DNA of 64,000 bases from Alphaproteobacteria bacterium (GTDB taxonomy: Bacteria > Pseudomonadota > Alphaproteobacteria > UBA828), in assembly GCA_965221125.1 (NCBI GenBank), contig CBDCRW010000004.1, forward strand, positions 896,001 to 960,000. Reading direction: 5' to 3'. Numbering within the stretch: the stretch's first letter is position 1; the number at the start of each line of letters is the position of its first letter. Both the position numbers and the translations under genes were made by a program. Below the pieces are notes generated by a model. The model did no database searches. It was not told where the DNA came from and saw only the letters and a program-made list of their open reading frames with translations. This document shows positions 19,613 to 40,632 of this stretch, one piece after another.

Positions 19613-21649
19613 TTGGTGACTCACGAAATAGCATTTGAAACGAGCCAGGGGGCGTCCGCGCTCAGTCTGCCGGAAGAGCTGCTGCTGGCGCTTCTGGACG
19701 AAGAGAGAGGTTATTTTCGTCAGGTACCCGGCTGGAACCTGCACTGCGCAATGGTCGGTGCAGCGCTGGGCGAGTTGTCGCTGCTCGGTCGTATCGACAC
19801 CGATCTGGAGTCGCTGACCCTGGTGGATGCGACCGACACGGGTCGTCCACTGCTCGACCCGATCTTGCGGGAGATCGCGACCGAAACGGAACTGCACGAT
19901 GCCCGCTACTGGATTGAACGGCTCGCTCCACAGTCCGAGTCGGTGATCTCCCAAGCGCTGGACGAGCTCGTTCGGCGACAGATTCTCGACGCCCACCCGG
20001 GCGGTTTCTATACCTTCACCAGGCGACAGCGGGCGGGCGAAACACCGCCAGGAGAAGACTACCCAGCGGGCGAGTTCGTAATTGCCCGGCTGACCAGAAT
20101 CATCTTCGCTGACGAGTTTCCGGATCCGCGCGACGTGATCATTGTCGGCCTCGTCAATGCCTGCCACGTGTTCCATCTGATGTATCCGATCGACGAGGAG
20201 GTGGAGGAACGGATTCAGCTCGTCTGCCGGATGGACCTGATTGGCCGGGCGATTGCGGAAGCGGTGAGCCAGAGCATCATCGCACCCTCGCTTCGCCGGC
20301 CCTCGCTGACCAAGAAGATTCCAACCGTGTCCCTGCGCGATCTGGTGTTCAACCGGGAGCTGCGGGAGGGCAGACTGCCGGCAGGGTTCGCCTACCTGGC
20401 CGACAAGTACGGTCCCGTGTTCGAGCTTCGGCTCCCGTTCCGCCAGAACGTGATTTTCCTGGCAGGGTTGAAGACGAACGAATGGGCCCATCGCATGGGG
20501 CGGGTGTACTTGCGGTCGAAGGAGTACTTCGAGGGCGTCGACAAGGCGTATGGCGTGTCGCGCTCAATGCACTCGATTGACGGTGCCGATCACTTTCGCT
20601 TTCGCAAGTCGTTGCATACTGCCTACTCTCAGAAGACTTTGACCAAGCGTCTGGACGAGGTCTATGACCTGTCCCGCGCGCACATGGCGGGTTGGGACGT
20701 CGGCACGACGATGCCGGTGCAGGTGATGCTGCGACCGTTTGTGAACGCGCAGTCATCGCCGCTCCTGGCCAGCATCGACACCCAAGCCGAGATCGTCGCC
20801 GCGCTCGAATACAAGGTACGGGTGCTCAATGTCGGCATCGTCAAGATATTGCCGCGTTTCATGCTCAAGACCCCGGGGATGCGCCGCCGGGCGAAGGCCA
20901 CGCAACGGATCATAGACCGTATGCAAAGGACGCATACGGCCGCGCAGCGGGCTGGGAAGCATGAGGACGTGGTGGACGCGTATCTGGCCCTGCACGCGTC
21001 CGATCCCCAATTCCTGCCCGAATCGGACCTGTCGCTGCCGCTAGGGGCGATCTTGATGACAGCCATGTACATGGGCGATCAGCTTGGCTTCGCCCTCTAC
21101 TGGTTGGCGCAGAATCCCGAGCTGTACGAGCGAGTCACGGCTGAAGCGGACGCGCTGTGGGCGGAGGGCGATCCCAGCGAGGATGATTTCAGTCGAGACC
21201 GGATCGATGTGACCCACCGCGTGCTGATGGAGTCTCTGCGGATGTCGCCGATCGTGCCCATGTCGATGCGCACGGTGATGAACACCTGCGTGGTGGAGGG
21301 TTACGAATTACCGGTGGGCGCGCAGCTCGTGATTGCACAGACGGCCACGCACTATTCGGAAGAGGTGTTTCCCGATCCGTGGACGTTCGACATCGACCGC
21401 TACGTGCCCCCGCGAAACGAGCACAAGAGCAGAGGGTACGCGCCCTTCGGGCTGGGCACGCACTCGTGTCTCGGGAGCAACTGGGCCGAATTGCACATAG
21501 TGATCAACCTGCTGATGCTCATGCATTACTTCAGGATCGAGCTGGCCCGCCCCTACAAGCGGTTGCCGATGGATCCGTTGCCCTCACAATCGCCCGGCAA
21601 CAAGCTCAAGTTCAGGCTCGCCGAGCAGCGCCACGAAATTCGAGTCTGA
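19613..21649 (+). CDS. GPP34 (GOLPH3-like) domain fused to cytochrome P450
   Basis: N-term LSLPEELLLALLD...GAALGELSL.GRI...TG.PLLD (GPP34); C-term ESLR, F.DP.TFDIDRY, heme motif FGLGTHSCLG. Confidence 0.85.
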   Translation: MVTHEIAFETSQGASALSLPEELLLALLDEERGYFRQVPGWNLHCAMVGAALGELSLLGRIDTDLESLTLVDATDTGRPLLDPILREIATETELHDARYWIERLAPQSESVISQALDELVRRQILDAHPGGFYTFTRRQRAGETPPGEDYPAGEFVIARLTRIIFADEFPDPRDVIIVGLVNACHVFHLMYPIDEEVEERIQLVCRMDLIGRAIAEAVSQSIIAPSLRRPSLTKKIPTVSLRDLVFNRELREGRLPAGFAYLADKYGPVFELRLPFRQNVIFLAGLKTNEWAHRMGRVYLRSKEYFEGVDKAYGVSRSMHSIDGADHFRFRKSLHTAYSQKTLTKRLDEVYDLSRAHMAGWDVGTTMPVQVMLRPFVNAQSSPLLASIDTQAEIVAALEYKVRVLNVGIVKILPRFMLKTPGMRRRAKATQRIIDRMQRTHTAAQRAGKHEDVVDAYLALHASDPQFLPESDLSLPLGAILMTAMYMGDQLGFALYWLAQNPELYERVTAEADALWAEGDPSEDDFSRDRIDVTHRVLMESLRMSPIVPMSMRTVMNTCVVEGYELPVGAQLVIAQTATHYSEEVFPDPWTFDIDRYVPPRNEHKSRGYAPFGLGTHSCLGSNWAELHIVINLLMLMHYFRIELARPYKRLPMDPLPSQSPGNKLKFRLAEQRHEIRV

Positions 21650-22815: not shown

Positions 22816-24267
22816 TCAGGCGGCCAGCGCCGCGCCGTCGGGGCCGCGGGGGTCGATGGGGGTCCGGGCGGCCAGCGGAATCGCCTCCTCGATGGCGGCT
22901 GCCGCGCGCAGCACTGCCGCCTCGCCGCGCGGGGGACCGAGGATCTGGAGGCCGACCGGCAGGCCTGACTCGGTGAAGCCCACCGGGACCGACGCGGAGG
23001 GACACGCGGTGAGCGTCAGCACGAAGGTGAGGCCCAGCCAGTCGACGTAGTTGTCGAAGCGGTGGCCGTCGATCTCGTCCACCCAGCGCGTGTCCACGTC
23101 GAAGGGCGGCACGATTACGCAGGGGCAGACCAGCACGTCGTGGCGCCGGAAGAAGCGCACGCAGTGCTGGTAGATGGCCCCGCGCGCACGCTCGGCGCGG
23201 GCGATGGTGTCGGCGTCGAGCGCGAGGCCCTTCTCGATGTTCCAGACGATCTCGGGCTTGAGCGCGTCGCGGTGGGTCTCCAGCAGCGGGCCCTTGTCGG
23301 CGGCGAAGAGGGCTGCGCGCAGAACCTGGAAGACGTTGAGCGCGCCGGAGAGGTCGGGGCAGGCCTCTGCCACCTCCATGCCCGCACCTGCGAGCGAGTC
23401 GGCGGCCTGCCTGCAGACGGCGGCGACCTCGCGGTCCACCGGCAGCAGGCCCAGGTCCGGGCTGTAGGCGACGCGGCCCGGCGGCGGCAGCGTCGCGACC
23501 GCGTCGGCAAAGCTCCGGGCCGGCGCTTCGACGGAGAGCGGGTCCTCGGGGTGCGCGCCCGCCATGGCATCCAGCATGAGGGCGCAGTCCCGCGCGTTGC
23601 GCGCCATGGGGCCGTCCACCATCAGCCCCTCGAAGGGCAGGTGCTTGGGGCCGTGGGCGACGCGGCCGGGGCTCGGGCGGAAGCCGAAGACGCTGCAGAA
23701 GCTCGCGGGGATGCGCAGGCTGCCCCCCAGATCCGAGCCGGTGGCGAGCCAGACCTGGCCGGTGGCCAATGCCGTGGACGAGCCGCCGGAGGAGCCGCCG
23801 CAGGTCTTGTCCGTGTTCCACGGGTTCCGCGTCTTGCCGAAGACCTCGTTGAAGGTGTTTGCGCCGGCGCCGAACTCGGGCGTGTTGGACTTGCCGATGA
23901 CGATGGCGCCGCGCGCCTCCAGGGTCTCGACCATGATGTCCGAGCGCGGCGGCACGTGATCGGCGTAGATCGGCGAGCCCCAGGTGGTGCGCACGTCCGC
24001 CACCTCCACCAGGTCCTTGACGCAGATGGGCACGCCGCCGAGCCAGCCGGGCGGGCGCTCGGCGTCCGCATCGTCGGCCATGATGCGCGCGGCATGGGCG
24101 CGGGCACGCTCGAGGCAGAGGGTCGGGATCGCGTTGAGGTGCCCATCGGTGGCCGCGATGCGCGCAGCGCTCGCGTCGACCAGCTCCAGCGGCGAGACCT
24201 CGCGCCGCCGCAGCAGATCGACCACCTCGGTCGCGCTCAGCCGCCAGAGATCGCCTCGTGCAGCCAT
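22816..24267 (-). CDS. Amidase signature family enzyme
   Basis: GVPICVKD, GKSNTPEFG, GGSSGGS, GSDLGGSLRIPASFC. Confidence 0.92.
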   Translation of the reverse strand: MAARGDLWRLSATEVVDLLRRREVSPLELVDASAARIAATDGHLNAIPTLCLERARAHAARIMADDADAERPPGWLGGVPICVKDLVEVADVRTTWGSPIYADHVPPRSDIMVETLEARGAIVIGKSNTPEFGAGANTFNEVFGKTRNPWNTDKTCGGSSGGSSTALATGQVWLATGSDLGGSLRIPASFCSVFGFRPSPGRVAHGPKHLPFEGLMVDGPMARNARDCALMLDAMAGAHPEDPLSVEAPARSFADAVATLPPPGRVAYSPDLGLLPVDREVAAVCRQAADSLAGAGMEVAEACPDLSGALNVFQVLRAALFAADKGPLLETHRDALKPEIVWNIEKGLALDADTIARAERARGAIYQHCVRFFRRHDVLVCPCVIVPPFDVDTRWVDEIDGHRFDNYVDWLGLTFVLTLTACPSASVPVGFTESGLPVGLQILGPPRGEAAVLRAAAAIEEAIPLAARTPIDPRGPDGAALAA

Positions 24268-24281
24268 CCTGCCGCCCTCCC

Positions 24282-25679
24282 TCAGCCCACGGGCGGCGTG
24301 CGGGAGTGCCAGTCGGTATCCTGCTGGTAGGCGTGGCCCGCCTGCAGCAGCCGCTCCTCGCTGAGCTGCGGGCCCACGATCTGGAAGCCCATGGGCAGGC
24401 CGTCCTCGTCGAAGCCGCCGGGCAGGCACATCGCGGGCGTCCGCGCCATGTCGTGGGGCGCGGTGAACGAGATCAGGCGCTCGACCGAGCCCGGCTCGGC
24501 GCCCAGCGTCTCCATGAAGGCGTTGGTGGGCGTGGGGTAGGGCTGCGAGGGGATGATGATGGCGTCGACATCGGCGAAGACGGCGTTGAGCGCGCCGACG
24601 AACTTGTCCCGCGCGATCACGATGCGGGCGTGGTCGACGCCGCTGAGCGCGAGCCCCGCCTCGATCAGGCTCGACAGCACCGGCCCGTACTTGGCCTTGT
24701 GCCGGGCGTAGTAGGGCTCGTGCGCGATGGCCGTGTCGGCGCCGCAGAAATCGTTCCAGCGGTCCACCATGACCGTGGCGTCGGGGAAGGCGATCGGCCG
24801 GATGTCGGCGCCGCGCCCGCGCAGCACGTCGGCCGCCTGCATCACCATGGCGGTCACGCGCGCATCCACGCCGTCGGAGCAGTAGGCCTCGTCGAGGCCG
24901 ATGCGCATGCCCCCGATGCCGGCGTCGATGCTGCCGAGGTAGTCGGGCACCGGCGCCTGCACGGTGGTCGGATCGTCGGGATCGACGCCGGCGATGACGC
25001 CGAGGATCGCGGCGCAGTCGGCGGCGGAGCGGGCCATCGGCCCGATGTGGTCGAGGGTCTCGGAGAGCGCGAAGGCGCCCGCGCGGCTGACGCGGCCCCA
25101 GGTGGGCTTTAGGCCGGTGACGCCGCAGGCCTGGGAGGGGAAGCGGATCGAGCCGCCGGTATCGGTGCCGAGCGAGCCGTAGCAGAGCCGGGCCGACGTG
25201 GCGACGCCGGAGCCGCTCGACGAGACCCCGGTCCAGTAGTCGGGATGCCACGGGTTGACCGGCGGCGCGATGGAGGGGTGGTGGACCGCGAAGGCGCCCT
25301 CGGTCATCTGCAGCTTGCCGGCGAAGACCGCGCCCGCCTCCCTGAGCCGCGCAGTGACGGTGCCGTCGACGCCCGGGCTCCAGTTGCGGAGCGCGACCGA
25401 GCCGACGTGCGTGGGCGCGTCCTTCGTCAGGCAGAGGTCCTTGAGACCGAAGGGGACGCCGTGGAGCGGCCCCTTGCGGTTGCTGGCGGCGATCTCCTCG
25501 TCCGCCTGCGCGGCCTGCTGCGTCGCGACATCCGCCATGACGGTGGCGTAGCTGCGAAGCGAGCCTTCGAGCTGTTCGATCCGCGCGATCGTGTGCGCCG
25601 TCACCTCAGCGGCGGAGACCTCCCGCGCCTCGATCTTCGCCGCGACCTCGGTCAGCATCAGCTCGTGCAGGTCAGACAT
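24282..25679 (-). CDS. Amidase signature family enzyme
   Basis: GPLHGVPFGLKD, GVSSSGS, GTDTGGSIRFPS..CG, LDHIGPMAR. Confidence 0.92.
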   Translation of the reverse strand: MSDLHELMLTEVAAKIEAREVSAAEVTAHTIARIEQLEGSLRSYATVMADVATQQAAQADEEIAASNRKGPLHGVPFGLKDLCLTKDAPTHVGSVALRNWSPGVDGTVTARLREAGAVFAGKLQMTEGAFAVHHPSIAPPVNPWHPDYWTGVSSSGSGVATSARLCYGSLGTDTGGSIRFPSQACGVTGLKPTWGRVSRAGAFALSETLDHIGPMARSAADCAAILGVIAGVDPDDPTTVQAPVPDYLGSIDAGIGGMRIGLDEAYCSDGVDARVTAMVMQAADVLRGRGADIRPIAFPDATVMVDRWNDFCGADTAIAHEPYYARHKAKYGPVLSSLIEAGLALSGVDHARIVIARDKFVGALNAVFADVDAIIIPSQPYPTPTNAFMETLGAEPGSVERLISFTAPHDMARTPAMCLPGGFDEDGLPMGFQIVGPQLSEERLLQAGHAYQQDTDWHSRTPPVG

Positions 25680-25831
25680 CCGAATCTCCCTCCTCCATGG
25701 TGGGCGCCGATTGAACGCCAAAGCCGCCATGCGTGCAAAGCGAATCTCCCCTGCGCCGTGGGCGATTGCCCGGCCGGGCGGGCCGTGATATCGACTGCGG
25801 CCCAAGGGCCGCGCGAGGGCGAGGGGAGACC

Positions 25832-26224
25832 ATGGCGGAGCGTTTCGCAATGACCATCGACGGCCGCACGGTCGTCGCCGAGCTGCTTGGGGGCAAGGCG
25901 CCCAACGTCGTCAAGGCGTTCACGCAGAGCCTGCCCTGCGACAGCTTCTCGGTGCACGCGAAGTTCGCGGGCGAGGAGCTGATCGTGATGCTCCCGTTCT
26001 ACTGCAATTCCGAGAACGAGATCCTCAACGTGAAGCCCGGCGATATCGGCTTCTATCCGGGGCGCCAGACTGCCTGCATCTTCTACGGCGACACGAAGCC
26101 GTTCGGGAAGGTCAGCGTGTTCGCCAGGATCGTCGAAGGGCTGGAGCACCTGAAGCCCGCGGGCAGGAAGATCCTCGCCAAGGGGCCGCTGCCGGTTCGG
26201 CTCGAACGCGTGCACGAAGGGTAG
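25832..26224 (+). CDS. DUF3830/cyclophilin-like protein (resembles McbB N-terminal domain)
   Basis: AP......LP......HAKFAGE, EN.....PGDIGFYP.....IFYG; RBS GAGGGGAG. Confidence 0.75.
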   Translation: MAERFAMTIDGRTVVAELLGGKAPNVVKAFTQSLPCDSFSVHAKFAGEELIVMLPFYCNSENEILNVKPGDIGFYPGRQTACIFYGDTKPFGKVSVFARIVEGLEHLKPAGRKILAKGPLPVRLERVHEG

Positions 26225-26228
26225 GGCC

Positions 26229-26708
26229 ATGGCCGCGACGGAAACCACCGCGATCATCGACCGGCTGGAGCGCTTCGGCCGCCGCAACTGGAACTCCGAG
26301 CCCGGCGACGTCACCCGGCTGCGCGCCCACAGCCTGCCCCCCATGGGCAACCTGCCGCCCGTGCTCTACGCCAACTTCAACACCTTCTGGATGGGCGAGA
26401 ACATCCAGGTCGTCCGCCAGCTCGCGCTCGACGAGGCGCTGCCGCCGGCGGCGCTCAACCAGATGGCGGCGGCGCTGCTCGACCGCCATGCCGGGCGGCT
26501 CGCCAAGTGGAAGCTCACCAACACGGTCAAGCTCGTGCGCGAGCTCTCCGCCTACTTCGAGGCCGGCGGCGCCAGGAACCACGGCGAGGTGGTGCAGGTC
26601 TGCGAGGCGGCGATGGTGGCCTTCGACCGGATCAATTCGTGGATCGACGCGATGATCCCGTGGGCGCACTTCGACAGGAAGGTGAAGCTGCTGGACGCGG
26701 CCGGCTGA
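26229..26708 (+). CDS. Helical-bundle protein resembling the cucumopine synthase/McbB C-terminal domain
   Basis: W..EP..V..LR near the N-terminus and INSW....IPW at the C-terminus; likely all-helical. Confidence 0.6.
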   Translation: MAATETTAIIDRLERFGRRNWNSEPGDVTRLRAHSLPPMGNLPPVLYANFNTFWMGENIQVVRQLALDEALPPAALNQMAAALLDRHAGRLAKWKLTNTVKLVRELSAYFEAGGARNHGEVVQVCEAAMVAFDRINSWIDAMIPWAHFDRKVKLLDAAG

Positions 26709-26740
26709 CGGCGGCGGGGCGGCGCGGGGGAGCGAAGGCC

Positions 26741-27646
26741 ATGTGCGGCGTCGGCGGCGTCTTCTTCAAGACCACCGAGCATCATCGCAAGACCGGCGAG
26801 ATCGCCTACCACGTGCTGGACGGCATCTATCGGCGCGGGCCGGACTCCACCGGGCTCGCCTTCGTCCAGCCGGCGGGCGAGGACCGCCTCTACGTCGGCA
26901 TCAATTGCGAGGAGCCGGGCGGCGGCGGGCGGGCGCTCGCGCTGCTCGACGAGCTCGGCCGGGTCGAGAGCGCCACCGACGGCGAGGGGTTCATCAGGAC
27001 CACGATCCGCTACGACGGCGACGATGCGGCGCTGGTGGACGCGATCGACGGCCTCGGGCCCGCCTACAGCGTCGCCAGCATCGGCCGCCGGCTCGAGGTG
27101 CTGAAGCACCTGGGCGGCGTGGACAACCTCGAGGACAAATTCACCATCACCGACTACGACGGGCCGATGGCGATGGGGCTCACCCGCTACGCGACGGAGA
27201 GCCAGATCGACTTCACCCACGGGCAGCCGCTTTCGGCGAGGCTGCATCGCGACCTCGCGATCATGCACAACGGCCACATCACGAACTTCCACCACCTGCG
27301 CTACCACTACGAGCATGCGGGCTACACCTTCACCACGAGCAACGATTCGGAGGTCATTGCCGTGGCGCTGGTGGACGAGATGGGGAAGGGCGCGAGCTTC
27401 CGCGAAGCGCTGGAGCGTTCCGTCTCGATCCTCGACGGCTGCTTCACCTACATCGCCGCGACGGCGGACGAGGTGGGCGTCGTCAAGGACCCCTACGCCG
27501 CGAAGCCGCTGGTGGTGGGCGAGACGGACCGGCTGGTGGCGGTGTCCTCCGATTGCTGGGCGCTGCGCGACGGCGTGGGCGAGGACATCGAGGTCTGGGA
27601 GCCGGGAGCCGGCGAAGTGGTGACATGGCGGCTTCCAATTCACTGA
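26741..27646 (+). CDS. Class II glutamine amidotransferase-like subunit (GlxB/MgsA-like)
   Basis: N-terminal MCG, RGPDSTG, TRYATES, HNGHITN, NDSEV, LDGCFT. Confidence 0.85.
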   Translation: MCGVGGVFFKTTEHHRKTGEIAYHVLDGIYRRGPDSTGLAFVQPAGEDRLYVGINCEEPGGGGRALALLDELGRVESATDGEGFIRTTIRYDGDDAALVDAIDGLGPAYSVASIGRRLEVLKHLGGVDNLEDKFTITDYDGPMAMGLTRYATESQIDFTHGQPLSARLHRDLAIMHNGHITNFHHLRYHYEHAGYTFTTSNDSEVIAVALVDEMGKGASFREALERSVSILDGCFTYIAATADEVGVVKDPYAAKPLVVGETDRLVAVSSDCWALRDGVGEDIEVWEPGAGEVVTWRLPIH

Positions 27647-28329
27647 CCATCGACTGCGCCGGCAGGCCCACGCGCGCGATCAACGAGGAGATCCGCCGCG
27701 CCGCCGACGACGGCGTGCCGCAAGTCGAGCTTCTCAACCCGCAGGCGCGGCACAACCTCGGCGTCTCGATCCTGAAGCCCATTCATCTCGTCTATCGCGG
27801 CCATGTCGGCTCCTACACGGTCGGCCTCTGCGACGGCGTGACCGCCGAGATTCACGGCACCGCCGGCTGGGGCGTGGCCGACAACCTGATGAGCGGCGAG
27901 GTGGTCGTGCGCGGCAACGCGGCGACCTCCGCCGCGCCGTCCATCCGCGGCGGACGCGTCGTCGTGCGGGGCGATGCGGGGCCGCGCTCCGGCATGATCC
28001 TGAAGAAGGGCGAGCTCATCATCGGCGGCAATGCCGGCTACATGTCCGGCTTCATGATGCAGAACGGCCGCATGGTCGTCTGCGGCGACGCCGATACGGG
28101 CTTGGGCGATTCCATGTATCAGGGCGTCATATTCCTTGGCGGCAAGGCCGAGGAACTCGGCTCCGGGCTCGCGCAGGTCGATGCCGAGAATGGCGAGCTC
28201 GAAGAGGTGGCGGAGCTGCTCGACCGCTTCGAGATCAAGGCGCCCAAGTCGTTCCGCAAGCTCCAGTCGGACCGCAAGTTGTGGCACTTCAACAAGCACG
28301 ACTTCGCGGCCTGGAAGGACGTGCTATGA
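27625..28329 (+). CDS. GXGXG/FwdC-like subunit (GlxC/MgsB-like)
   Basis: GWGVADNLMSG, GNAGYMSGFMMQ.G, GDSMYQG, RKLWHF. Confidence 0.85.
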   Translation: MAASNSLTIDCAGRPTRAINEEIRRAADDGVPQVELLNPQARHNLGVSILKPIHLVYRGHVGSYTVGLCDGVTAEIHGTAGWGVADNLMSGEVVVRGNAATSAAPSIRGGRVVVRGDAGPRSGMILKKGELIIGGNAGYMSGFMMQNGRMVVCGDADTGLGDSMYQGVIFLGGKAEELGSGLAQVDAENGELEEVAELLDRFEIKAPKSFRKLQSDRKLWHFNKHDFAAWKDVL

Positions 28330-29738
28330 GCGAGACCCCGAGCGAATCCGCACCTGCCCACGCGGGCGATTCCAGCGTCGAAGTCGTGGACGAGGCGGCG
28401 CCCGCGCCCAACGGCGCCTATCCGCGTCCGCCCGGCTTCAGCGGCGTCTGGCCGCCGGAGGTGATCGAGGAGATCCAGGAGAAGGCGGCGCTCGGGCGCT
28501 ACCAGATCCGCGGCCAGGCGACCAAGCGGCAGGGCCTGCCCTCCTTCGACGACCTCGTGTTCGTGCCGGCCGGCCTCTCGCGCATGCCGCTGGAGGGCTA
28601 CCGCGAGAAGTGCGACACGCGCGTCGTCATCGGCGAGGGCGCCTGCGAGAACCCGCTGGTGCTGGAGCGACCCATCATGATCGCGGGCATGAGCTTCGGC
28701 GCGCTCTCGGTCCACGCCAAGCGCGCGCTCGGCACGGCGGCGAGCCGCTGCGGCATCTCAACCTGCACCGGCGAAGGCGGCATGCACCACGAGGAGCGCC
28801 GCTACTCCGACAAGCTGGTGATGCAGTACCTGCCGAGCCGCTACGGCATGAACCCCTACGACCTCAAGAAGGCCGACATGATCGAGATCGGCTGCGGGCA
28901 GGGGGCGAAGCCTGGCACCGGCGGCGTGCTGCTGGGGCTCAAGATGTCGGACGAGGTGGCGGAGATGCGCGACCTGCCGGAAGGCGTGGACCAGCGCAGC
29001 CCCTGCCGCCATCCCGACTGGATGGGCGCGGACGACCTCTACATGAAGCTGGAGGAGATCCGCGAGGTCACCGAGTACAAGGTGCCGATCTCGATCAAGG
29101 TGGGCGCCGCGCGCATCGCGAACGACGTGCGCATCGCGGCGAAGGCCGGAGTCGACGCCATCGTCTTCGACGGCATAGAGGGGGGCACCGCGGCCTCGCC
29201 CACGATCCAGCTCGACCATGCCGGGATACCGACGGTCGCCGCCATCGCCGAGGCGGCGGAAGCGCTCGCCGAGGTGGGCAAGAAGGACAAGATGAAGCTC
29301 ATCGTGGGCGGCGGCATCCGCAACGGGGCGGACGCGGCGAAGTGCATCGCCTTGGGCGCCGACGTGGTCTACCTCGGCACCGCGCCGATCATCGCCATGG
29401 GCTGCCACAAGCCGATCTACCTGGAGGACTACGCGCGGCTAGGGACCTCGCCCTACGAGTGCCAGCACTGCCACACGGGCCTCTGCCCCGTCGGCATCAC
29501 CACGCAGCTGCCGAAGCTGATGGAGCGGCTCGACGTGGACGAGGCCGCCGACAGCGTCACCAACTATCTGAATGCGCTCACCATGGAGATCCAGCTCTTC
29601 GCCCGCGCCTGCGGCAAGAACCGGGTGAGCGACCTCGACCCCAACGACCTCCGCGCACTCACCCACGACGTGGCGATGATGACCGGCGTGGACATGGTCG
29701 GCCTCGGCGGCCGCACGCCGTGGTGGAAGAAGTTCTAG
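28326..29738 (+). CDS. FMN-binding glutamate synthase-family subunit (GlxD/MgsC-like)
   Basis: SRMPLEGYREKC, MSFGALS, TGEGG, GQGAKPG.GG.L.G.K, SPCRHPDW, CQHCHTG.CPVGITTQ. Confidence 0.9.
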   Translation: MSETPSESAPAHAGDSSVEVVDEAAPAPNGAYPRPPGFSGVWPPEVIEEIQEKAALGRYQIRGQATKRQGLPSFDDLVFVPAGLSRMPLEGYREKCDTRVVIGEGACENPLVLERPIMIAGMSFGALSVHAKRALGTAASRCGISTCTGEGGMHHEERRYSDKLVMQYLPSRYGMNPYDLKKADMIEIGCGQGAKPGTGGVLLGLKMSDEVAEMRDLPEGVDQRSPCRHPDWMGADDLYMKLEEIREVTEYKVPISIKVGAARIANDVRIAAKAGVDAIVFDGIEGGTAASPTIQLDHAGIPTVAAIAEAAEALAEVGKKDKMKLIVGGGIRNGADAAKCIALGADVVYLGTAPIIAMGCHKPIYLEDYARLGTSPYECQHCHTGLCPVGITTQLPKLMERLDVDEAADSVTNYLNALTMEIQLFARACGKNRVSDLDPNDLRALTHDVAMMTGVDMVGLGGRTPWWKKF

Positions 29739-29818
29739 AGCGCTATCCGACCGGATGGGATCGTTCGCGGTCGCCGTAGACTCACAGCTTCACACGCCGG
29801 GCGACCGAAAGGAAACCC

Positions 29819-30039
29819 CTCCTCACCCCGGCCCTCTCCTCCCCCGAGGGATACCTCTGCGAAATCGGTTCTGCCGTGCATTGGGGGAAGTCTTCGGCGC
29901 TGGACGGTGCTGATGGAGCCGAATTTGCGGCTACCGTTGGACAATCTTGGGTGTGAATCGGTGGTTTGCGGGCGCGATGGAGCGTCAGCAGCCAGCCACA
30001 ACCCCTTTTCGCAGAGGTATCCCGAGGGGAGGAGAGGGA
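29819..30039. repeat. REP-like hairpin (CCTCACCCCGGCCCTCTCC...GGAGAGGG) split by a MITE
   Basis: Removing the insert restores CCCTCTCCTCCC-CCGAG-GGGAGGAGAGGG; a related looser hairpin lies at ~30107-30150. Confidence 0.65.
29849..30022. mobile_element. 174-bp MITE with IS5-like terminal inverted repeats
   Basis: Perfect 16-bp TIR GGATACCTCTGCGAAA / TTTCGCAGAGGTATCC flanked by duplicated CGAG. Confidence 0.75.
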
Positions 30040-30204
30040 GAAGGGGCCGGTACGGCTATCGTTCCCCCTCCGCTCATCGGGGGCGACACCGGCGTCTGCG
30101 ACAGCGTCCCCCCTCCGCCCTTTGGGGGGAGGGGGACAGGGGGAGGTGGGAACCTCGGGCCGTCGTGATCTCGTCGGGTCGGAAACCGCTCTATCTGGCC
30201 CGAT

Positions 30205-31206
30205 TCAGGCCGTAGGCGCGGGGTCCATCCACCCGGCGAAGGTCTCGCGGATCGCCGCGTCGTCGGCGCCGGCCATCAGCAGCAGCGTGAGCAGCAGGCG
30301 CGACTTGAGCCCGTCGAGCCAGCCGGCGCTGATCAGCCCGCGCGCCAGCAGGTCGATCTCCGAGCCCTTGAAGTCGTAGGTCCGGCGCAGCATCTCGCCG
30401 GCGCCGGTGCGGGACGCCATCACCACCGGCACGCGCCCGGCCGCCTCCACGAGCTTGTCGGCGACCCAGGCTGCGGCATGGCCGCCGCCGGTGCATTCCA
30501 TCACGATCCCCCGGTAGCCTGCCGCCAGCGCGTGCTCGATCAGCCGGCCGTCGTCGCCGAGCGTGACCGTGAGCAGCGCGACGGGCGCGGGCTCGGCGTC
30601 GCGGGCCACGGCGAGCGGGTGGCGGGGGCCGGGCGGGCCGGCGAGCCGCACCGCGCCTTCGGCGAACCAGCCGAGCGGGCCGAGCGGGCGTGAGCGGAAG
30701 GCTGCAGGGTTCGACGTCTCCCCCTTCTGCACGAAGCGTGCGGCGTGGATCTCGTCATTCATGACGACCGTGACGCCAAGACCCCGCGCCGGCCCGTGGG
30801 CCGCGAGGCGGACGGCGTTGAGCAGGTTGGCCGGCCCGTCGGGGCCGGCGAGCGTCGGGTTGCGCATGGCGCCGGTCACCACCACGGGGGCGTCGATGCC
30901 AAGGATGCGGTCGAGCACGAAGGCGGTCTCCTCCATCGTGTCGGTGCCGTGGGTGACGACCGCGCCGTGGGCGCCCTCCGCCACCGCCTGCTCGATGGCG
31001 TCCGCCAGCGCGAAGAGATCGGGGATCGTGACGGCAGGGCTCGGCAGCAGGCGGAAGGTCTCCGCCTCGACGGTCGCGACCTCGGCGAGCTGCGGCACCG
31101 CCTCCACCAGCGCATCGGCACCGAGCGAGGGCGTGACGCCGCGCGCGCCCTGCCCGGCCATGGCGATGGTCCCGCCCATGGCGAAGACGGCGATTTTCGG
31201 CAGCAT
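30205..31206 (-). CDS. L-asparaginase family protein
   Basis: MGGTIA, VTHGTDTMEET, VVTGAMR, DGPANL. Confidence 0.9.
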   Translation of the reverse strand: MLPKIAVFAMGGTIAMAGQGARGVTPSLGADALVEAVPQLAEVATVEAETFRLLPSPAVTIPDLFALADAIEQAVAEGAHGAVVTHGTDTMEETAFVLDRILGIDAPVVVTGAMRNPTLAGPDGPANLLNAVRLAAHGPARGLGVTVVMNDEIHAARFVQKGETSNPAAFRSRPLGPLGWFAEGAVRLAGPPGPRHPLAVARDAEPAPVALLTVTLGDDGRLIEHALAAGYRGIVMECTGGGHAAAWVADKLVEAAGRVPVVMASRTGAGEMLRRTYDFKGSEIDLLARGLISAGWLDGLKSRLLLTLLLMAGADDAAIRETFAGWMDPAPTA

Positions 31207-33237: not shown

Positions 33238-33813
33238 TCAGCCGCGCAGCCAGGTCTCGGACCAGGCCAGGCAGCTCGAGCTCGACGGGTGCCCGAACAT
33301 GACGTTCTCGTAAGCCGCGCCCTGAGCGCGCGTTCCCGCGACGTCCAGCGTCGCGGTGCGGCACGGTATGAGGCAGCTGTAAACCGCCCACGGGCCGGTG
33401 TCGGGATTGTCCGGCGGGAGCGTCAGCATGAAGGGCTCGCCCATGTCGGACCAGCTCAGCTCGATCCGCCCGTCGGCCGAGTCCACGATCTCGCGATAGC
33501 TGGAGCGGTAGGCGCCTTCGCGCGAGAACGCGGCTTCGGCGATGGGCATGGCGGTATCGGCGAAGGGCGGGTTCAAGATCGCCTCCAGCTCGCCCTGGAG
33601 CCAGCGCGCCATCCCGACGTTGTCGGCGTAGAGCTTCACTTCGCCGCCGGTGGCGTCGGAGCGGAGGAAGAGGCAGGTGCCCGGCCCGGACGGCGAGATC
33701 AACGTGCGCCAGTGGGCGACGACGGTGGTCTCATCCCCGTCGGCCTCGGCCTTGAGCCGCATGAACGAGTTCTCTCCGGTGAAGTGAATCTTGTTGGGAT
33801 CGATGGCGGTCAT
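33238..33813 (-). CDS. Hypothetical protein
   Basis: 191-aa ORF with GGAGG RBS and host-like codon usage. Confidence 0.7.
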   Translation of the reverse strand: MTAIDPNKIHFTGENSFMRLKAEADGDETTVVAHWRTLISPSGPGTCLFLRSDATGGEVKLYADNVGMARWLQGELEAILNPPFADTAMPIAEAAFSREGAYRSSYREIVDSADGRIELSWSDMGEPFMLTLPPDNPDTGPWAVYSCLIPCRTATLDVAGTRAQGAAYENVMFGHPSSSSCLAWSETWLRG

Positions 33814-37898: not shown

Positions 37899-38342
37899 TC
37901 ACTCCACGCGAGTCCAGGTCTCGGTCTTGCAGACGAACCACACGCAGCCGCTCACCTTGACCGTGTTCGCATCGACGAGTTCGAGCTCCGCGTCGTAGGT
38001 CCCGCCGTCCCTGGCATTGTAGACCTCGCCGTCTTCCCACTGGCCGCCGCCCTGATCCTCCAGGTCAAACAGCATCTGGATGCCCAGCACCGGCCGGTCG
38101 CGGAGGGATTCGTCCTCGTTCTCGACGTCCCGCCTCGGCTTGCCGTCCTTGCCGAGCGGACTCTTGAGCCAGACGATCTCGCCGCACAGTTCGTCGCCGT
38201 TGCAGGAATAGAGCTTTACGTGCGCGTCCTGCGGCTCGTTGAGCCAGACGCCATAGGGGTCTGCCGCGAGCGCACCGCTCGTGATACCGCCAACGATCAG
38301 CGCACCCGCCAGCACGCTGCATGTCTTGATCCGTCCCGTCAT
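37899..38342 (-). CDS. DUF2147 family exported protein
   Basis: Signal peptide, G.W, LCG.IVW, W.DGEVYN..DG.TY, GC...CK..TWTR. Confidence 0.85.
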   Translation of the reverse strand: MTGRIKTCSVLAGALIVGGITSGALAADPYGVWLNEPQDAHVKLYSCNGDELCGEIVWLKSPLGKDGKPRRDVENEDESLRDRPVLGIQMLFDLEDQGGGQWEDGEVYNARDGGTYDAELELVDANTVKVSGCVWFVCKTETWTRVE

Positions 38343-38898
38343 CTCGCCAGCCTCCGTCCTCGCCCATGGTCGGCCTACGCCCCTCCAGAATAGCCGACCG
38401 CGCGCGCTACTGGCAGCCCGAAGCTTGGGGCCATCGAGAGGGGGGCTCCGCTGTCTCCCTGGGTCCGCGCCCTTCAGCCGCACGAAACGCTACGCCCATA
38501 CGGTCCGCCGATCCCAACGGATAAACCAATTGAACATATTAGTTTTTGTGTTATATCTATTTTGATACATTAAGTTTAGGGCAGGTGGAGACAGAGGGGG
38601 CATGCCGATGGTGGCCGGTAGGCAAGCGGAGAGCAGCGCCGTGGGGCTCTCGGGCGAGGACAACGACATGCGCTCGAAGAACGGGGTAGCACAGTACATG
38701 CACTCGCCATTGGGGCGCATGGCACTGCTGATCAACACCAGCCGCGTCCGCAACATGTCGGACGCAACCGGCAACCGGTTCTACGAGTCCTGGCGCGTCT
38801 TGCGAGCACTTGCCACGCTGGTCGGCCTTCGCCACTTCGCGCGTGCACACGGCCTTCGGCTGAAACTAGTACCGGTCAGCTCAATACCTAGGCCTTCC

Positions 38899-40632
38899 AT
38901 GATCGCCTTCCCGCTAGTACTGGTATCAGCTTGTCTAATGTTGCCTTCGTGTGAAAAAACAGAAAGGTCGGGAACAACATTCCGAACATTCTCGGCTATT
39001 GAAGGGGAAAGCATCTCTATCGATGCCCATCAGAGAGCCATTATCACTACAGAGGTTCGTGACGAGAGTGGCCAATCTCGCCTCATATATTGCGCCGAGC
39101 CGAGTCCCGACGCTTTTGCAAGTATAAACTCGACATTAAATCGTTCGATAGCAGCTGAGGTGGAGAACAGGGGAGAAATATCCGCGGAAAATATAGAGAC
39201 TTTAACATCCGCAGCTTCCAATGCACTCAATGCTCGCAACGCCACTATTCAGCTTCTTAGGGACGGACTGTACCGAGCCTGCGAGGCTTATGCTACAGGC
39301 GCGTTAAGCAAAAATGAGTACGTCGGAATAGTTGGCCAATATCAAAATGTTATATTGGCTCTTCTATCTGTAGAGCTACTAACTACTATCAATAGGCGCG
39401 AGGAAAATGGTTCTGAGCCAGGAACTCCTGAAGCGGGTGCTTCTAAAAAAGGCACTTCGGATTACGGTTTTACAGGTCTTGGCGAAACGTCGATTGCAGA
39501 AATAGCTCAGACGGCAGAAGACCTTGTACTGCGCGTGTTAGACATCGAACGGGAAAGGGCACTACAGCCACGCTTCGCCGAGTGCGTTCAGCGGACGCGT
39601 CACGACGACTCAGAACTTAGCGAAAGCTTATCTCGTTGGTGTGAGATTATGCTAAAGCACATTGCAAAGGAAAGCGTAAGTAGAGGGGACGATTCGGGTC
39701 CAACACTGGATGACTTGGCAGAAGCGCTGGTCAATCCGGAGGGTGATGTTCATGTCGGAGAGCCATACCAAGTGAGTCTTAAGCAGGACGATCACCTGAA
39801 GGTTTATGACTGGACTAATGTAACTAACGCGGTTTATGAGATAGATCTAATAGATAAATCTCCGATAACTGTTGGCGATCCAGCTCTTATAATTGTCAAA
39901 GCTGAAACTTCTGAAATAATAAATAGCGATGATGACTCGGGAAATGGGTTAAACGCAAATATTACTATGCAGTTTGCGCCGGGCACATACCAAATTCTGG
40001 TTATCAACAATGCCGAGGAAGGCACTGCCACGTTCGAGTTGCTCATAACGCAAGCCCAAGAACAGGACGCAGCTGATCGCGAGGCGCACGTAGACACGCA
40101 GTCGAATGCGGAAACTGTGTCTACAAATGGGGCAAGCAATGTATACCAGGAAGGTGAAGCGGGGGACGAGTCCGTAGACTCGATTGGGTCGCTTGAAGAC
40201 TTGATAGAAGCGCTGGCCAATCCGGACGGTAACGCTTTTATCGAAAGGCCGGTTAAAGTGAGTCTTGACAAAGGTGAACACTTAAAGGTTTACAATTGGA
40301 CTAACGAGTCAGACGCGATTTATGAAATAAGTCTAATTGATCAATCTGTTTTAAGTGTGGGAGATCCGGCGCTCATAGTTATCAATGCCGATACTGCTGA
40401 AATATTGGCTGATGATGATGACTCTGGAACCGGACTAAACGCGGTAATTTCTATGAGGTTTGCCCCAGCGGACTATCAGTTGCTGATCGTCAACCATGCC
40501 CAGGATTCGACCGCTGCGTTCGAGTTGGTTATAAGGCAAGTCGAAGGTCAGAGCGAACGAGATCGCGAAGCACGCGCAAGCGCGCTGTCTCGTGCGAAAG
40601 GAGTGTCTCCAGGTGAGGACGGCAACGTATAG
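38899..40632 (+). CDS. Low-GC lipoprotein with two tandem PPC-like beta-domain repeats
   Basis: Signal with lipobox LPSC; CAEPSPD...IQLLRDGLYRACEAY domain; repeats at 39706-40089 and 40192-40575 each with GDPAL and DDDSG.GLNA; start could be further upstream (38602). Confidence 0.75.
   Translation: MIAFPLVLVSACLMLPSCEKTERSGTTFRTFSAIEGESISIDAHQRAIITTEVRDESGQSRLIYCAEPSPDAFASINSTLNRSIAAEVENRGEISAENIETLTSAASNALNARNATIQLLRDGLYRACEAYATGALSKNEYVGIVGQYQNVILALLSVELLTTINRREENGSEPGTPEAGASKKGTSDYGFTGLGETSIAEIAQTAEDLVLRVLDIERERALQPRFAECVQRTRHDDSELSESLSRWCEIMLKHIAKESVSRGDDSGPTLDDLAEALVNPEGDVHVGEPYQVSLKQDDHLKVYDWTNVTNAVYEIDLIDKSPITVGDPALIIVKAETSEIINSDDDSGNGLNANITMQFAPGTYQILVINNAEEGTATFELLITQAQEQDAADREAHVDTQSNAETVSTNGASNVYQEGEAGDESVDSIGSLEDLIEALANPDGNAFIERPVKVSLDKGEHLKVYNWTNESDAIYEISLIDQSVLSVGDPALIVINADTAEILADDDDSGTGLNAVISMRFAPADYQLLIVNHAQDSTAAFELVIRQVEGQSERDREARASALSRAKGVSPGEDGNV

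Follow-up and report, generated by a model that had tools for sequence, protein, structure and literature searches.

A mostly two-gene subfamily of the McbB/KslB fold linked to glutamate-synthase-like and glutamine-synthetase-like genes in marine and soil bacteria

Described relatives and the fold of the ORF1–ORF2 pair

So far, only a few enzymes of natural-product and opine formation are known to have the McbB/KslB fold. Here, we analyze two adjacent open reading frames (ORFs), ORF1 and ORF2, which head a five-gene cluster in a 64,000-nucleotide stretch of an alphaproteobacterial genome (assembly GCA_965221125.1, contig CBDCRW010000004.1, positions 896,001 to 960,000; hereafter, the window), and describe the distinct subfamily of this fold to which they belong. 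The subfamily comprises 110 loci, is mostly encoded by two genes, contains, as judged from alignments, no member with the catalytic residue of the family, and, in soil bacteria, SAR202, and marine Alphaproteobacteria alike, is tied to glutamate-synthase-like and glutamine-synthetase (GS)-like genes. In the literature searched, we found no description of a DUF3830/helical pair associated with GlxBCD, N-methylglutamate, or microcompartment systems.

Among the described systems, the closest are McbB from Marinactinospora thermotolerans (3x27) and the cucumopine/mikimopine synthases, which are encoded in natural-product or transfer DNA (T-DNA) clusters and consist of a β-barrel followed by a helical bundle, the same domain order as ORF1 and ORF2. 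Two reports describe this family as cofactor-free enzymes that join an amino-acid amine and a carbonyl into a Schiff base, followed by cyclization (PMC12012969, PMC12536604). The kitasetaline Pictet-Spenglerase KslB is reported to be a homodimer that uses 2-oxoglutarate as the carbonyl partner and carries the two McbB domains in reversed order, with 9% identity to McbB (PMC12012969). This swap shows that the two domains are separable modules, although KslB and AsKslB (9ns6, 9k0a, 9uwa) are, unlike ORF1 and ORF2, single chains with the helical domain first. Three further structures, TM1367, AF2241 (PF04126), and 3kop (DUF3830), resemble ORF1 in sharing the GxE and GD.GY.P...C.F.G motifs, but are standalone proteins of unknown function, with no helical partner domain in the chain. 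The three genes that follow the pair resemble those of N-methylglutamate synthase (MgsABC), which acts together with the ligase GmaS in the N-methylglutamate pathway of methylamine use. Finally, in metabolosomes, such as PDU and EUT, an enclosed signature enzyme makes an aldehyde, which is processed by an acylating aldehyde dehydrogenase (AldDh), PduL, and an acyl kinase.

ORF1 scores above the Pfam gathering thresholds for both DUF3830 (PF12903; 49.5 bits, cut-off 26) and Cyclophil_like (PF04126; 41.7 bits, cut-off 27). Its sequence matches in the PDB are TM1367, 3kop, and AF2241, and the same three structures are matched by the ORF1 profile at E values of 1.6e-13 to 6.5e-12. ORF2 has no Pfam match even at E 10, the Cucumopine_C family (PF18631) included, and matches no NCBIfam model, no PDB sequence (phmmer; best E 0.38), and no named cluster in the ESM Atlas (scores ≤0.81). 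Its close homologs form 59 unnamed clusters, almost all of about 160 aa, and an alignment of 21 homologs is strongly conserved, as illustrated by the segments LPPMGN.P.V.YANFNTFW.GEN and WIDA.IPW. The AlphaFold2 model of ORF2 obtained from this alignment is all-helical, with a predicted local distance difference test (pLDDT) score of 90.2. When it was compared with the PDB using Foldseek, ranks 1 to 33 were all KslB or McbB chains (TMq 0.67–0.71, best E 9.6e-3, identity 12–17%), with KslB/AsKslB as the best structural matches, and were followed by unrelated helical bundles at TMq ≤0.5.

An exhaustive search with the 21-homolog ORF2 profile yielded 123 representatives at E 1e-3 or better. A Pfam scan covering 35 of these identified 12 proteins of 263–323 aa in which an N-terminal DUF3830 domain precedes a C-terminal ORF2-like domain. 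The profile matches also include standalone proteins that pass the PF18631 cut-off of 27 bits (P0150, 51.1 bits; P0116, 48.9 bits), and the link between ORF2, which fails this model, and PF18631 is therefore only transitive. A survey of PF18631 in 401 genomes of the phylum returned two carriers and no useful context.

The fused relatives connect both ORFs to McbB. A single open frame of 286–294 aa encodes both the ORF1-like and the ORF2-like part at the SAR202/Dehalococcoidia loci and at one locus from Desulfobacteraceae. A profile of 20 longer (fused) forms matched McbB (3x27_A, deposited under the name "cucumopine synthase") at E 1.4e-17, aligning profile positions 3–280 with chain positions 23–325, and its ORF1-like part corresponds to McbB residues 23–124. 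The KslB-type chains 9uwa, 9k0a, and 9ns6 were matched at about 1e-15, with the halves in swapped order, and TM1367, AF2241, and 3kop were also recovered; McbB was reached only by this full-length profile, not by the profile of ORF1. Consistently with these alignments, the model of a fused SAR202 relative, which is 44–49% identical to the two ORFs of the window, matched McbB over its full length (E 3.1e-14, TMq 0.79, TMt 0.74), with 12–17% sequence identity between KslB and the ORF2 and fused-relative models. This model is of high confidence (pLDDT 92.7; predicted template modeling score 0.91), and its sole low-confidence block, residues 131–140, coincides with the cut between ORF1 and ORF2. 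Both ORF1+ORF2 and the fused relative thus combine a cyclophilin-like barrel with a helical bundle, and because the profile and structure routes are independent and agree, we are highly confident that ORF1 and ORF2 represent a split McbB/KslB two-domain fold, with a barrel and a cucumopine-synthase-type bundle, as an earlier note on this DNA had suggested from its letters.

ORF1 ends with a TAG stop (26222–26224), which is followed by four bases (ggcc) and the ATG of ORF2 in another frame; a GAAGGG run precedes the ORF2 start, and the two genes are probably translationally coupled. The heterodimer proposed in the earlier note received a median score of 0.34 in complex prediction, the individual runs scoring 0.65, 0.02, and 0.34 and the best control 0.00. 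This result was graded as weak support, with at least 68% shared contacts and partner pLDDT of at least 76 across the runs. The mark used for this score is reached by 116 of 157 solved complexes and by 2 of 215 mismatched pairs, but because the fused homologs have solved structures, a pass may reflect likeness to these rather than binding.

Split and fused forms and their active-site residues

The 110 loci were drawn from contigs of one genome per species (30 loci, hereafter genome loci) and from metagenome contigs (80 loci). The search patterns of the metagenome scan were confined to the barrel domain and so could favor neither fused nor split forms. In all, 102 of the 110 loci contain both domains, with 74 split versus 28 fused, making splitting the commoner state in this subfamily; the view that these enzymes are normally one chain, as stated in the earlier note, is valid for the characterized enzymes but not here. 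The two parts lie in different frames in 61 split loci and are separated by a same-frame stop in 13. In about 30 split loci, the parts are 290–490 nt apart, and the ORF2 homolog bears an N-terminal extension of about 130 aa. ORF1 and ORF2 of the window do not form one polypeptide, and this is not an assembly error, because the stop-and-restart junction is identical in architecture in the 13 closest genomes and a 384-nt RNA-library contig spans it ungapped. Several Alphaproteobacteria (P0037–P0053, L019, L020) encode an ORF2 homolog with a Lys/Ala-rich low-complexity N-terminal tail of 15–50 residues, which is missing from the window copy and may be a remnant of an interdomain linker.

In a quick maximum-likelihood tree of the two joined domains (96 rows, midpoint root), fused forms (L030, SAR202, and L055–L059) are basal, and a clade of 72 rows (SH-aLRT 98) includes 69 split and 3 fused forms. 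Five changes between the split and fused labels are needed in all, and the starred branches force at least two. The nearest relatives of the window belong to a 22-row alphaproteobacterial clade (support 97), nested inside the split clade, with soil split clades linked to bacterial microcompartments (BMCs) as its neighbors.

Residue equivalences to McbB and KslB were taken from hidden Markov model (HMM) alignments. The Glu of the McbB YGPLTE and KslB-type YGPTTE motifs aligns to Pro90 in the FYGDTKPF segment of ORF1, and the absence of a Glu after the YG motif, which had been noticed in the earlier reading, extends across the subfamily, in that 106 of the 107 homologs have Pro at the aligned position. 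The residue just ahead of this Pro is variable (Q, M, K, E, T, R, V, or A), and is a Glu in only 15 of 107. McbB His87, a position to which we presume a functional role, aligns to Thr80 of ORF1. In the KslB study, the Glu is identified as catalytic (McbB Glu97, KslB Glu274), with the E274Q substitution killing KslB activity, and the product moiety that stems from 2-oxoglutarate is held through its carboxylates by Arg256 and Lys264 (PMC12012969). Counting 18 and 10 residues back from the catalytic Glu, these two residues map to Gly73 and Thr80 of ORF1. The alignments thus indicate that the subfamily has lost both the Pictet-Spenglerase catalytic Glu and the 2-oxoglutarate-binding Arg/Lys pair of KslB. 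The HAKFAG loop of ORF1 is kept, its aligned counterparts being HALVSG (McbB) and HAMVSG (KslB type). The KslB study places the KslB backbone amides that hold the tryptophan carboxylate at Val223–Ser225, about 50 residues before Glu274 (PMC12012969); HAKFAG, 43–48 residues ahead of the aligned Pro90, would be the equivalent carboxylate-holding loop, and we infer that the subfamily still binds an amino acid.

A canonical Pictet-Spenglerase was considered and set aside, given the replacement of the catalytic Glu by an invariant Pro and the loss of the KslB Arg/Lys. In contrast to McbB and the cucumopine synthases, the pair is neither a single chain nor equipped with the catalytic Glu, and ORF2 also fails PF18631; for these reasons, we do not file it as a Pictet-Spenglerase. 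Loss of the Glu needed for cyclization would fit an enzyme that stops at, or starts from, an imine.

Linkage to GlxBCD, a ligase, and microcompartment operons

The gene order ORF1-ORF2-GlxB-GlxC-GlxD is found, as far as each contig reaches, in all 23 alphaproteobacterial/proteobacterial genome loci (L001–L021, L027, L029), and six SAR202/Dehalococcoidia loci have the rearranged order GlxB-C-D-fused gene. GlxBCD accompany the pair in 29 of the 30 genome loci, the exception being L030, a metagenome-assembled genome (MAG) of Desulfobacteraceae. This arrangement is far beyond chance, and the conserved linkage anticipated in the earlier note is borne out. Over all 110 loci, Glx genes are present in 63, a GS-like ligase orthologous to that of L014 in 56, and either in 85. 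None of the Glx, GS, or BMC genes was seen in 13 loci, 11 of which are on contigs shorter than 6.6 kb, the others being L106 (8.6 kb) and L030 (12.3 kb). Among loci of at least 8 kb, Glx and GS genes are present in 25 and 10 of the 26 genome loci, and in 27 and 29 of the 36 metagenome loci, respectively. Absences in the locus annotation tables are weak, because the greedy longest-ORF choice gave many spurious frames in high-GC DNA.

The three Glx proteins of the window correspond, in order, to the class-II amidotransferase, GXGXG, and flavin mononucleotide (FMN) subunits of MgsABC, as had been surmised from the letters. GlxB has an N-terminal Cys, which is conserved in 50 of the 50 homologs whose match begins at residue 1, and its NCBIfam matches to purF and glmS are below cut-off. 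GlxC is 38–97% identical across related loci. The best PDB matches of GlxD are the FMN domains of GltB (E 5.8e-36), and a CQHCHTGLCP segment at residue 379 has a C-x2-C-[HQ]-x3-C-P pattern that is kept in 58 of 60 homologs and that we take to be the counterpart of the GltB Fe-S site. Reading the cluster as an ordinary glutamate synthase (GOGAT) was considered and set aside.

As had been noted before, the window carries no gmaS/glnT; no GS-family (PF00120) gene is present there, and the cluster-type ligase is missing from the 13 closest relatives as well. A GS-like ligase is nonetheless part of the system. It adjoins the cluster in 44 of the 80 loci from metagenomes and in 12 of the 30 from genomes, lying directly after GlxD in seven alphaproteobacterial loci (L014–L016, L018, L020, L021, L029) and a few kilobases upstream of the cluster in four SAR202 loci. 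The ortholog in the genome of the window is on another contig (C5:483565-484881), is 72% identical to the L014 copy, and is one of about nine GS-family genes genome-wide; the genes around it (L039) encode a luciferase-like monooxygenase and a 2-oxoglutarate-Fe(II) oxygenase, with no substrate-identifying gene among them. The cluster-type ligase matches solved GmaS structures at E 2.2e-42 and 3.4e-39 and ordinary glutamine synthetases at E 2.4e-53, and in NCBIfam falls below cut-off for type III GS and gamma-glutamylputrescine synthetase; on these scores, it is not specifically GmaS-like. Collectively, the core consists of the ORF1/ORF2 pair, GlxBCD, and the GS-like ligase.

ORF1 and ORF2 are single copy in the genome, which has two other GlxBCD clusters, C2:81558-84716, beside GS-like and DAO genes, and C7:794015-796833, beside an M20 peptidase; the pair was not found at either. 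The genome is rich in amine- and amide-related paralogs, with about nine GS-family genes, three GlxBCD clusters, and some forty amidase-signature matches. Other neighbors of the pair vary by lineage and include an isochorismatase-family hydrolase (L010), a dimethylformamidase-like protein (L018), an S15 hydrolase (L014), phosphotriesterase-family proteins (SAR202), an M20 peptidase (L064), and MFS, ABC, and APC transporters.

The subunit types and order, the kept amidotransferase Cys, and the accompanying GS-family ligase in relatives would all be expected if the cluster were a paralogous MgsABC for methylamine, with the pair as a dispensable accessory, and methylamine use is described as common in marine Alphaproteobacteria. 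We nevertheless consider this explanation quite improbable. The genome has two further GlxBCD clusters, the C2 one directly beside GS-like and DAO genes; the ligase linked to the cluster resembles solved GmaS no more closely than it does ordinary glutamine synthetases; and neither gmaS nor, among the ORFs scanned, mgdABCD, the N-methylglutamate dehydrogenase genes, was seen beside the window cluster, which has the extra McbB-fold pair. As to mgdABCD, no such sarcosine-oxidase-like four-gene set was seen beside the cluster among the window ORFs covered by the Pfam scan, which were a part of the total, and the greedy ORF choice may miss genes. The compartment genes of sister clades, described next, would also fit an aldehyde of at least two carbons better than formaldehyde.

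Sister-clade soil loci place the pair in operons resembling the PDU, EUT, and RMM metabolosomes, with BMC-H, BMC-P (EutN), a PduL-type phosphotransacylase (PTAC), an EutE/PduP-like AldDh, and acetate kinase. A BMC-related gene (PduL or shell) is present in 30 of the 80 metagenome loci and a shell gene in 24, with shell and Glx genes together in five (L089, L109, L111, L120, and L124). In L099, L101, and L109, the order is DAO-ORF1-extended ORF2-GS-like-PduL (PTAC)-tandem BMC-H-AldDh-unknown-EutN-EutN, with an APC permease nearby, and L109 also carries acetate kinase; L110 has AckA-ORF1-extended ORF2-PduL-BMC-H-BMC-H-AldDh-EutN-EutN, and L124 has FGGY kinase-GlxB-GlxC-GlxD-ALDH-BMC-H-ORF1-ORF2-EutN. 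The L099 AldDh passes NF011927 with 592.6 bits (cut-off 403), its next matches being acetylating acetaldehyde dehydrogenases, and the closest matches of the L099 DAO protein, both below cut-off, are N-methyltryptophan oxidase and sarcosine oxidase beta (SoxB). At ≥60% identity, 30 metagenome loci and no genome locus carry this soil DAO. The extended ORF2 homologs (for example, L099:8175-8594; P0064, P0068, and P0069) begin with a short amphipathic peptide, a putative microcompartment encapsulation peptide, followed by a Gly/Ser-rich linker; further along, the extension contains a segment reading "...TPLARDLA.EHGIE..", which matches E3_binding (E 0.0031) and PDU_like (E 0.011) weakly and below threshold, and a C-x2-C-x2-C-x2-P motif. 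These operons differ from known metabolosomes in that the candidate signature enzyme is the McbB-fold pair, with or without GlxBCD, the GS-like ligase, and DAO, and in L110-type operons, the pair would, by analogy, be the only candidate. The supplements searched of the 2021 BMC catalogue contain no pfam12903, pfam04126, DUF3830, or pfam01645 (the type may bear another HMM name), and a single mention of pfam00120, for type MIC2, which has a different enzyme set; pfam01493 does not occur in the type-description file (file 4), nor do "glutamine synthetase" and "cyclophilin" in the main text (PMC8217296).

These operons bear on whether the pair is an enzyme at all. The loss of the catalytic Glu and keto-acid-binding residues, the similarity of ORF1 to small cyclophilin-like proteins with no known activity, and the constant company of larger enzymes would suit a ligand-binding, assembly, or regulatory subunit docking on GlxBCD or GS-like enzymes, with the fold kept as an amino-acid/amine pocket. 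We judge such a non-enzymatic role unlikely, given the very strong conservation of both proteins, with mean column identities of 67% for ORF1 and 60% for ORF2 in the homolog alignments and residues K44, E49, D71, Y75, Q79, T80, C82, and P90 of ORF1 invariant in 14 sequences. Moreover, operons of the L110 type encode no non-core product other than the pair beside AckA, PduL, AldDh, and shell proteins, so that the pair is in the place normally taken by the signature enzyme, and BMC-linked homologs bear a targeting-like peptide of their own.

A possible role in amine catabolism and the surrounding locus

Our tentative proposal, which we hold with less than even confidence, is that the module carries out an N-alkylglutamate-type conversion of amines to aldehydes, in which the pair makes or breaks a C=N bond. 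Catabolism of an amine to an aldehyde is suggested by the sister-clade neighbors, which are BMC operons with CoA-acylating AldDh, PduL, and acetate kinase. First, the GS-like ligase, which is encoded elsewhere in this genome, would gamma-glutamylate a primary amine to a gamma-glutamyl amide. By analogy with MgsABC, GlxBCD would then move the amine to the alpha-position of glutamate, yielding an N-alkylglutamate, the N-alkyl carbon of which would be oxidized by a flavoprotein, such as the sarcosine-oxidase-like flavoprotein of the soil relatives. The product of this oxidation, a Schiff base of the glutamate alpha-amine with the carbonyl, would be handled by the McbB-fold heterodimer, with release of the aldehyde as the most likely outcome. 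In the sister clades, this step would be enclosed in a BMC, whereas the organism studied here would run the module shell-free. If the two amidases upstream feed the module, they would do so in this lineage only.

The opposite direction deserves consideration because the characterized relatives condense amino acids with 2-oxoglutarate or aldehydes via a Schiff base. The pair could join an amine or amino acid to 2-oxoglutarate, and the N-substituted 2-iminoglutarate would then be reduced by GlxD, giving either an N-(dicarboxypropyl) compound of the opine type or a precursor of an alkaloid. The FMN domain of GlxD is that of a glutamate synthase, for which 2-iminoglutarate is the normal substrate in established GOGAT enzymology, and the tight linkage in 29 of 30 genome loci would also be accounted for. 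Such a synthesis is rather unlikely, in our view, given that the KslB 2-oxoglutarate-binding Arg256 and Lys264 align to Gly73 and Thr80 and the catalytic Glu is absent. Furthermore, in contrast to the settings of McbB and the cucumopine synthases, the context is one of GlxBCD, a GS-like ligase, uptake systems, and hydrolases, with acylating AldDh, PduL, and AckA in sister clades and no biosynthetic tailoring genes seen among the neighbors, and the pair also occurs without GlxBCD (L110, L099). The opine or alkaloid transformation suggested in the earlier note is therefore not favored over catabolism.

Several observations weigh against the proposed amine-to-aldehyde module. Subfamily members are all uncharacterized as to substrate, product, and activity, and the data are compatible with either formation or cleavage of the C=N bond. 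In the genome of the window, which is 92% complete, there are no matches to the BMC shell family PF00936, no ortholog of the soil DAO was found (best 33% identity), and the cluster of the window includes no aldehyde dehydrogenase; shell proteins together with an aldehyde dehydrogenase are found only in relatives (L099, L110, and L124), so that the aldehyde link is carried over from these. GlxBCD are missing from several long BMC-linked loci, among them L101–L103 and L099 (7.8 kb of upstream and 8 kb of downstream sequence), and GlxBCD and the pair are thus separable. At L030:1703-5804, a divergent fused member (28–34% identity) lies without GlxBCD between an Amidohydro_3 protein and an Old-Yellow-Enzyme-type FMN oxidoreductase. 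At the level of the fold, the ORF1 profile alone has no McbB match at E 0.01 or better, matching the function-unknown TM1367, AF2241, and 3kop, and the three complex runs of ORF1 with ORF2 scatter widely. The weakest points of the pathway are its direction, the oxidase missing here, the amine, and the separability of the pair from GlxBCD.

A more specific version, which we regard as doubtful, is that the pair serves as signature enzyme in a hitherto undescribed pathway from amine to aldehyde, releasing an aldehyde from a glutamate-bound iminium by a cofactor-free "reverse condensation," with a new BMC type in soil and the same pathway run shell-free in marine Alphaproteobacteria, including sponge-associated ones, and SAR202. 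If this were true, the fold, known only from enzymes that make alkaloids and opines, would gain a primary-metabolic, catabolic origin or branch. If the proposed role in amine catabolism holds, abundant marine heterotrophs and sponge symbionts would have an extra route for it. Those GlxBCD paralogs whose present default annotation is N-methylglutamate or glutamate synthase would then acquire a function, and a set of soil microcompartment operons its missing signature enzyme.

Two sets of neighbors are described here in their own right. In L030, the pairing is again one of a hydrolase and a flavoenzyme. In L019:11472-16412 and L020:13170-14600, the cluster is followed by a class-I amidotransferase (PuuD-like), a Zn-dependent alcohol dehydrogenase, and an OoxA/HcnB-like Pyr_redox_2 + BFD [2Fe-2S] protein, and is preceded by a polyamine/opine-type ABC transporter, surroundings that look like a gamma-glutamyl-amine catabolic setting.

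The features of the window are listed in Table 1. The anatomy described in the earlier note, with five tightly packed co-directional genes divergent from two amidase genes, is exact, and the ORFs lie at the coordinates given there. The intergenic region presumably holds the promoters, although a consensus scan of 25500-30400 identified no sigma-70-like promoter or terminator. A Shine-Dalgarno-like GGGGAGA run lies 4 nt ahead of the ORF1 ATG, and the Glx genes overlap, GlxB/GlxC by 22 nt and GlxC/GlxD by 4 nt. For amidase 1, every NCBIfam amidase model is below cut-off. The same 7 of the 30 genome loci, all nearest relatives, carry both amidases together, upstream; the amidases are thus a lineage-specific local addition outside the core module.

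Table 1. Coordinates of the cluster, its divergent neighbors, and BMC-linked metagenome loci
Feature	Position	Strand	Description
ORF1	25832-26224	+	130 aa; cyclophilin-like beta-barrel (DUF3830); counterpart of the McbB N-terminal domain; within longer frame 25733-26224
ORF2	26229-26708	+	159 aa; helical bundle; distant branch of the cucumopine-synthase C-terminal domain; counterpart of the McbB C-terminal domain
GlxB-like class-II (Ntn) glutamine-amidotransferase subunit	26741-27646	+	301 aa; N-terminus Met-Cys-Gly; Pfam GATase_6/7
GlxC-like GXGXG beta-helix subunit	27625-28329	+	234 aa; PF01493, 40.4 bits (cut-off 32.5)
GlxD-like FMN subunit (glutamate synthase FMN domain)	28326-29738	+	470 aa; PF01645 Glu_synthase, 328.8 bits
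Amidase-signature hydrolase 1	24282-25679	-	465 aa; PF01425, E 1.4e-95; divergent from ORF1
Amidase-signature hydrolase 2	22816-24267	-	483 aa; PF01425, E 6.8e-99; 14 nt downstream of amidase 1
Divergent intergenic region, amidase 1 to ORF1	25680-25831	.	152 bp
BMC-linked metagenome loci	L099:6368-14477, L110:864-7166, L124:1430-9100		Pfam annotation

RNA-library contigs from two studies lie on the operon at 90–99% likeness. The 384-nt contig (X15 record 3) covers 26190-26573 and runs ungapped, with 7 differences, across the junction of ORF1 and ORF2, and X17 record 18 (25945-27246) and X18 record 27 (25945-27235) each cross the ORF1/ORF2 and ORF2/GlxB junctions. These contigs give a weak hint of co-transcription of ORF1, ORF2, and GlxB, but cannot prove transcription, because the libraries may contain DNA and several contigs are from relatives that are 90–95% alike, the longer ones at about 92%. 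In DNA runs labeled sponge metagenome, 38–45% of the sampled words were present. Several related MAGs are labeled Rhodospirillales.

Elsewhere in the window, the region 38001-40000 has a GC content of 0.54, compared with about 0.69 elsewhere, and may be foreign DNA; a 676-aa ORF in this low-GC stretch (38602-40629) has no Pfam match at E 1e-6 or better. A 191-aa ORF (33238-33813, minus strand) with no Pfam match at E 10 lies between genes for an MFS transporter and a threonine-aldolase-like protein. An unusual 678-aa ORF (19613-21649, plus strand) fuses an N-terminal GPP34 domain (Golgi phosphoprotein 3-like; E 2.1e-27) to a cytochrome P450 (E 1.6e-36).

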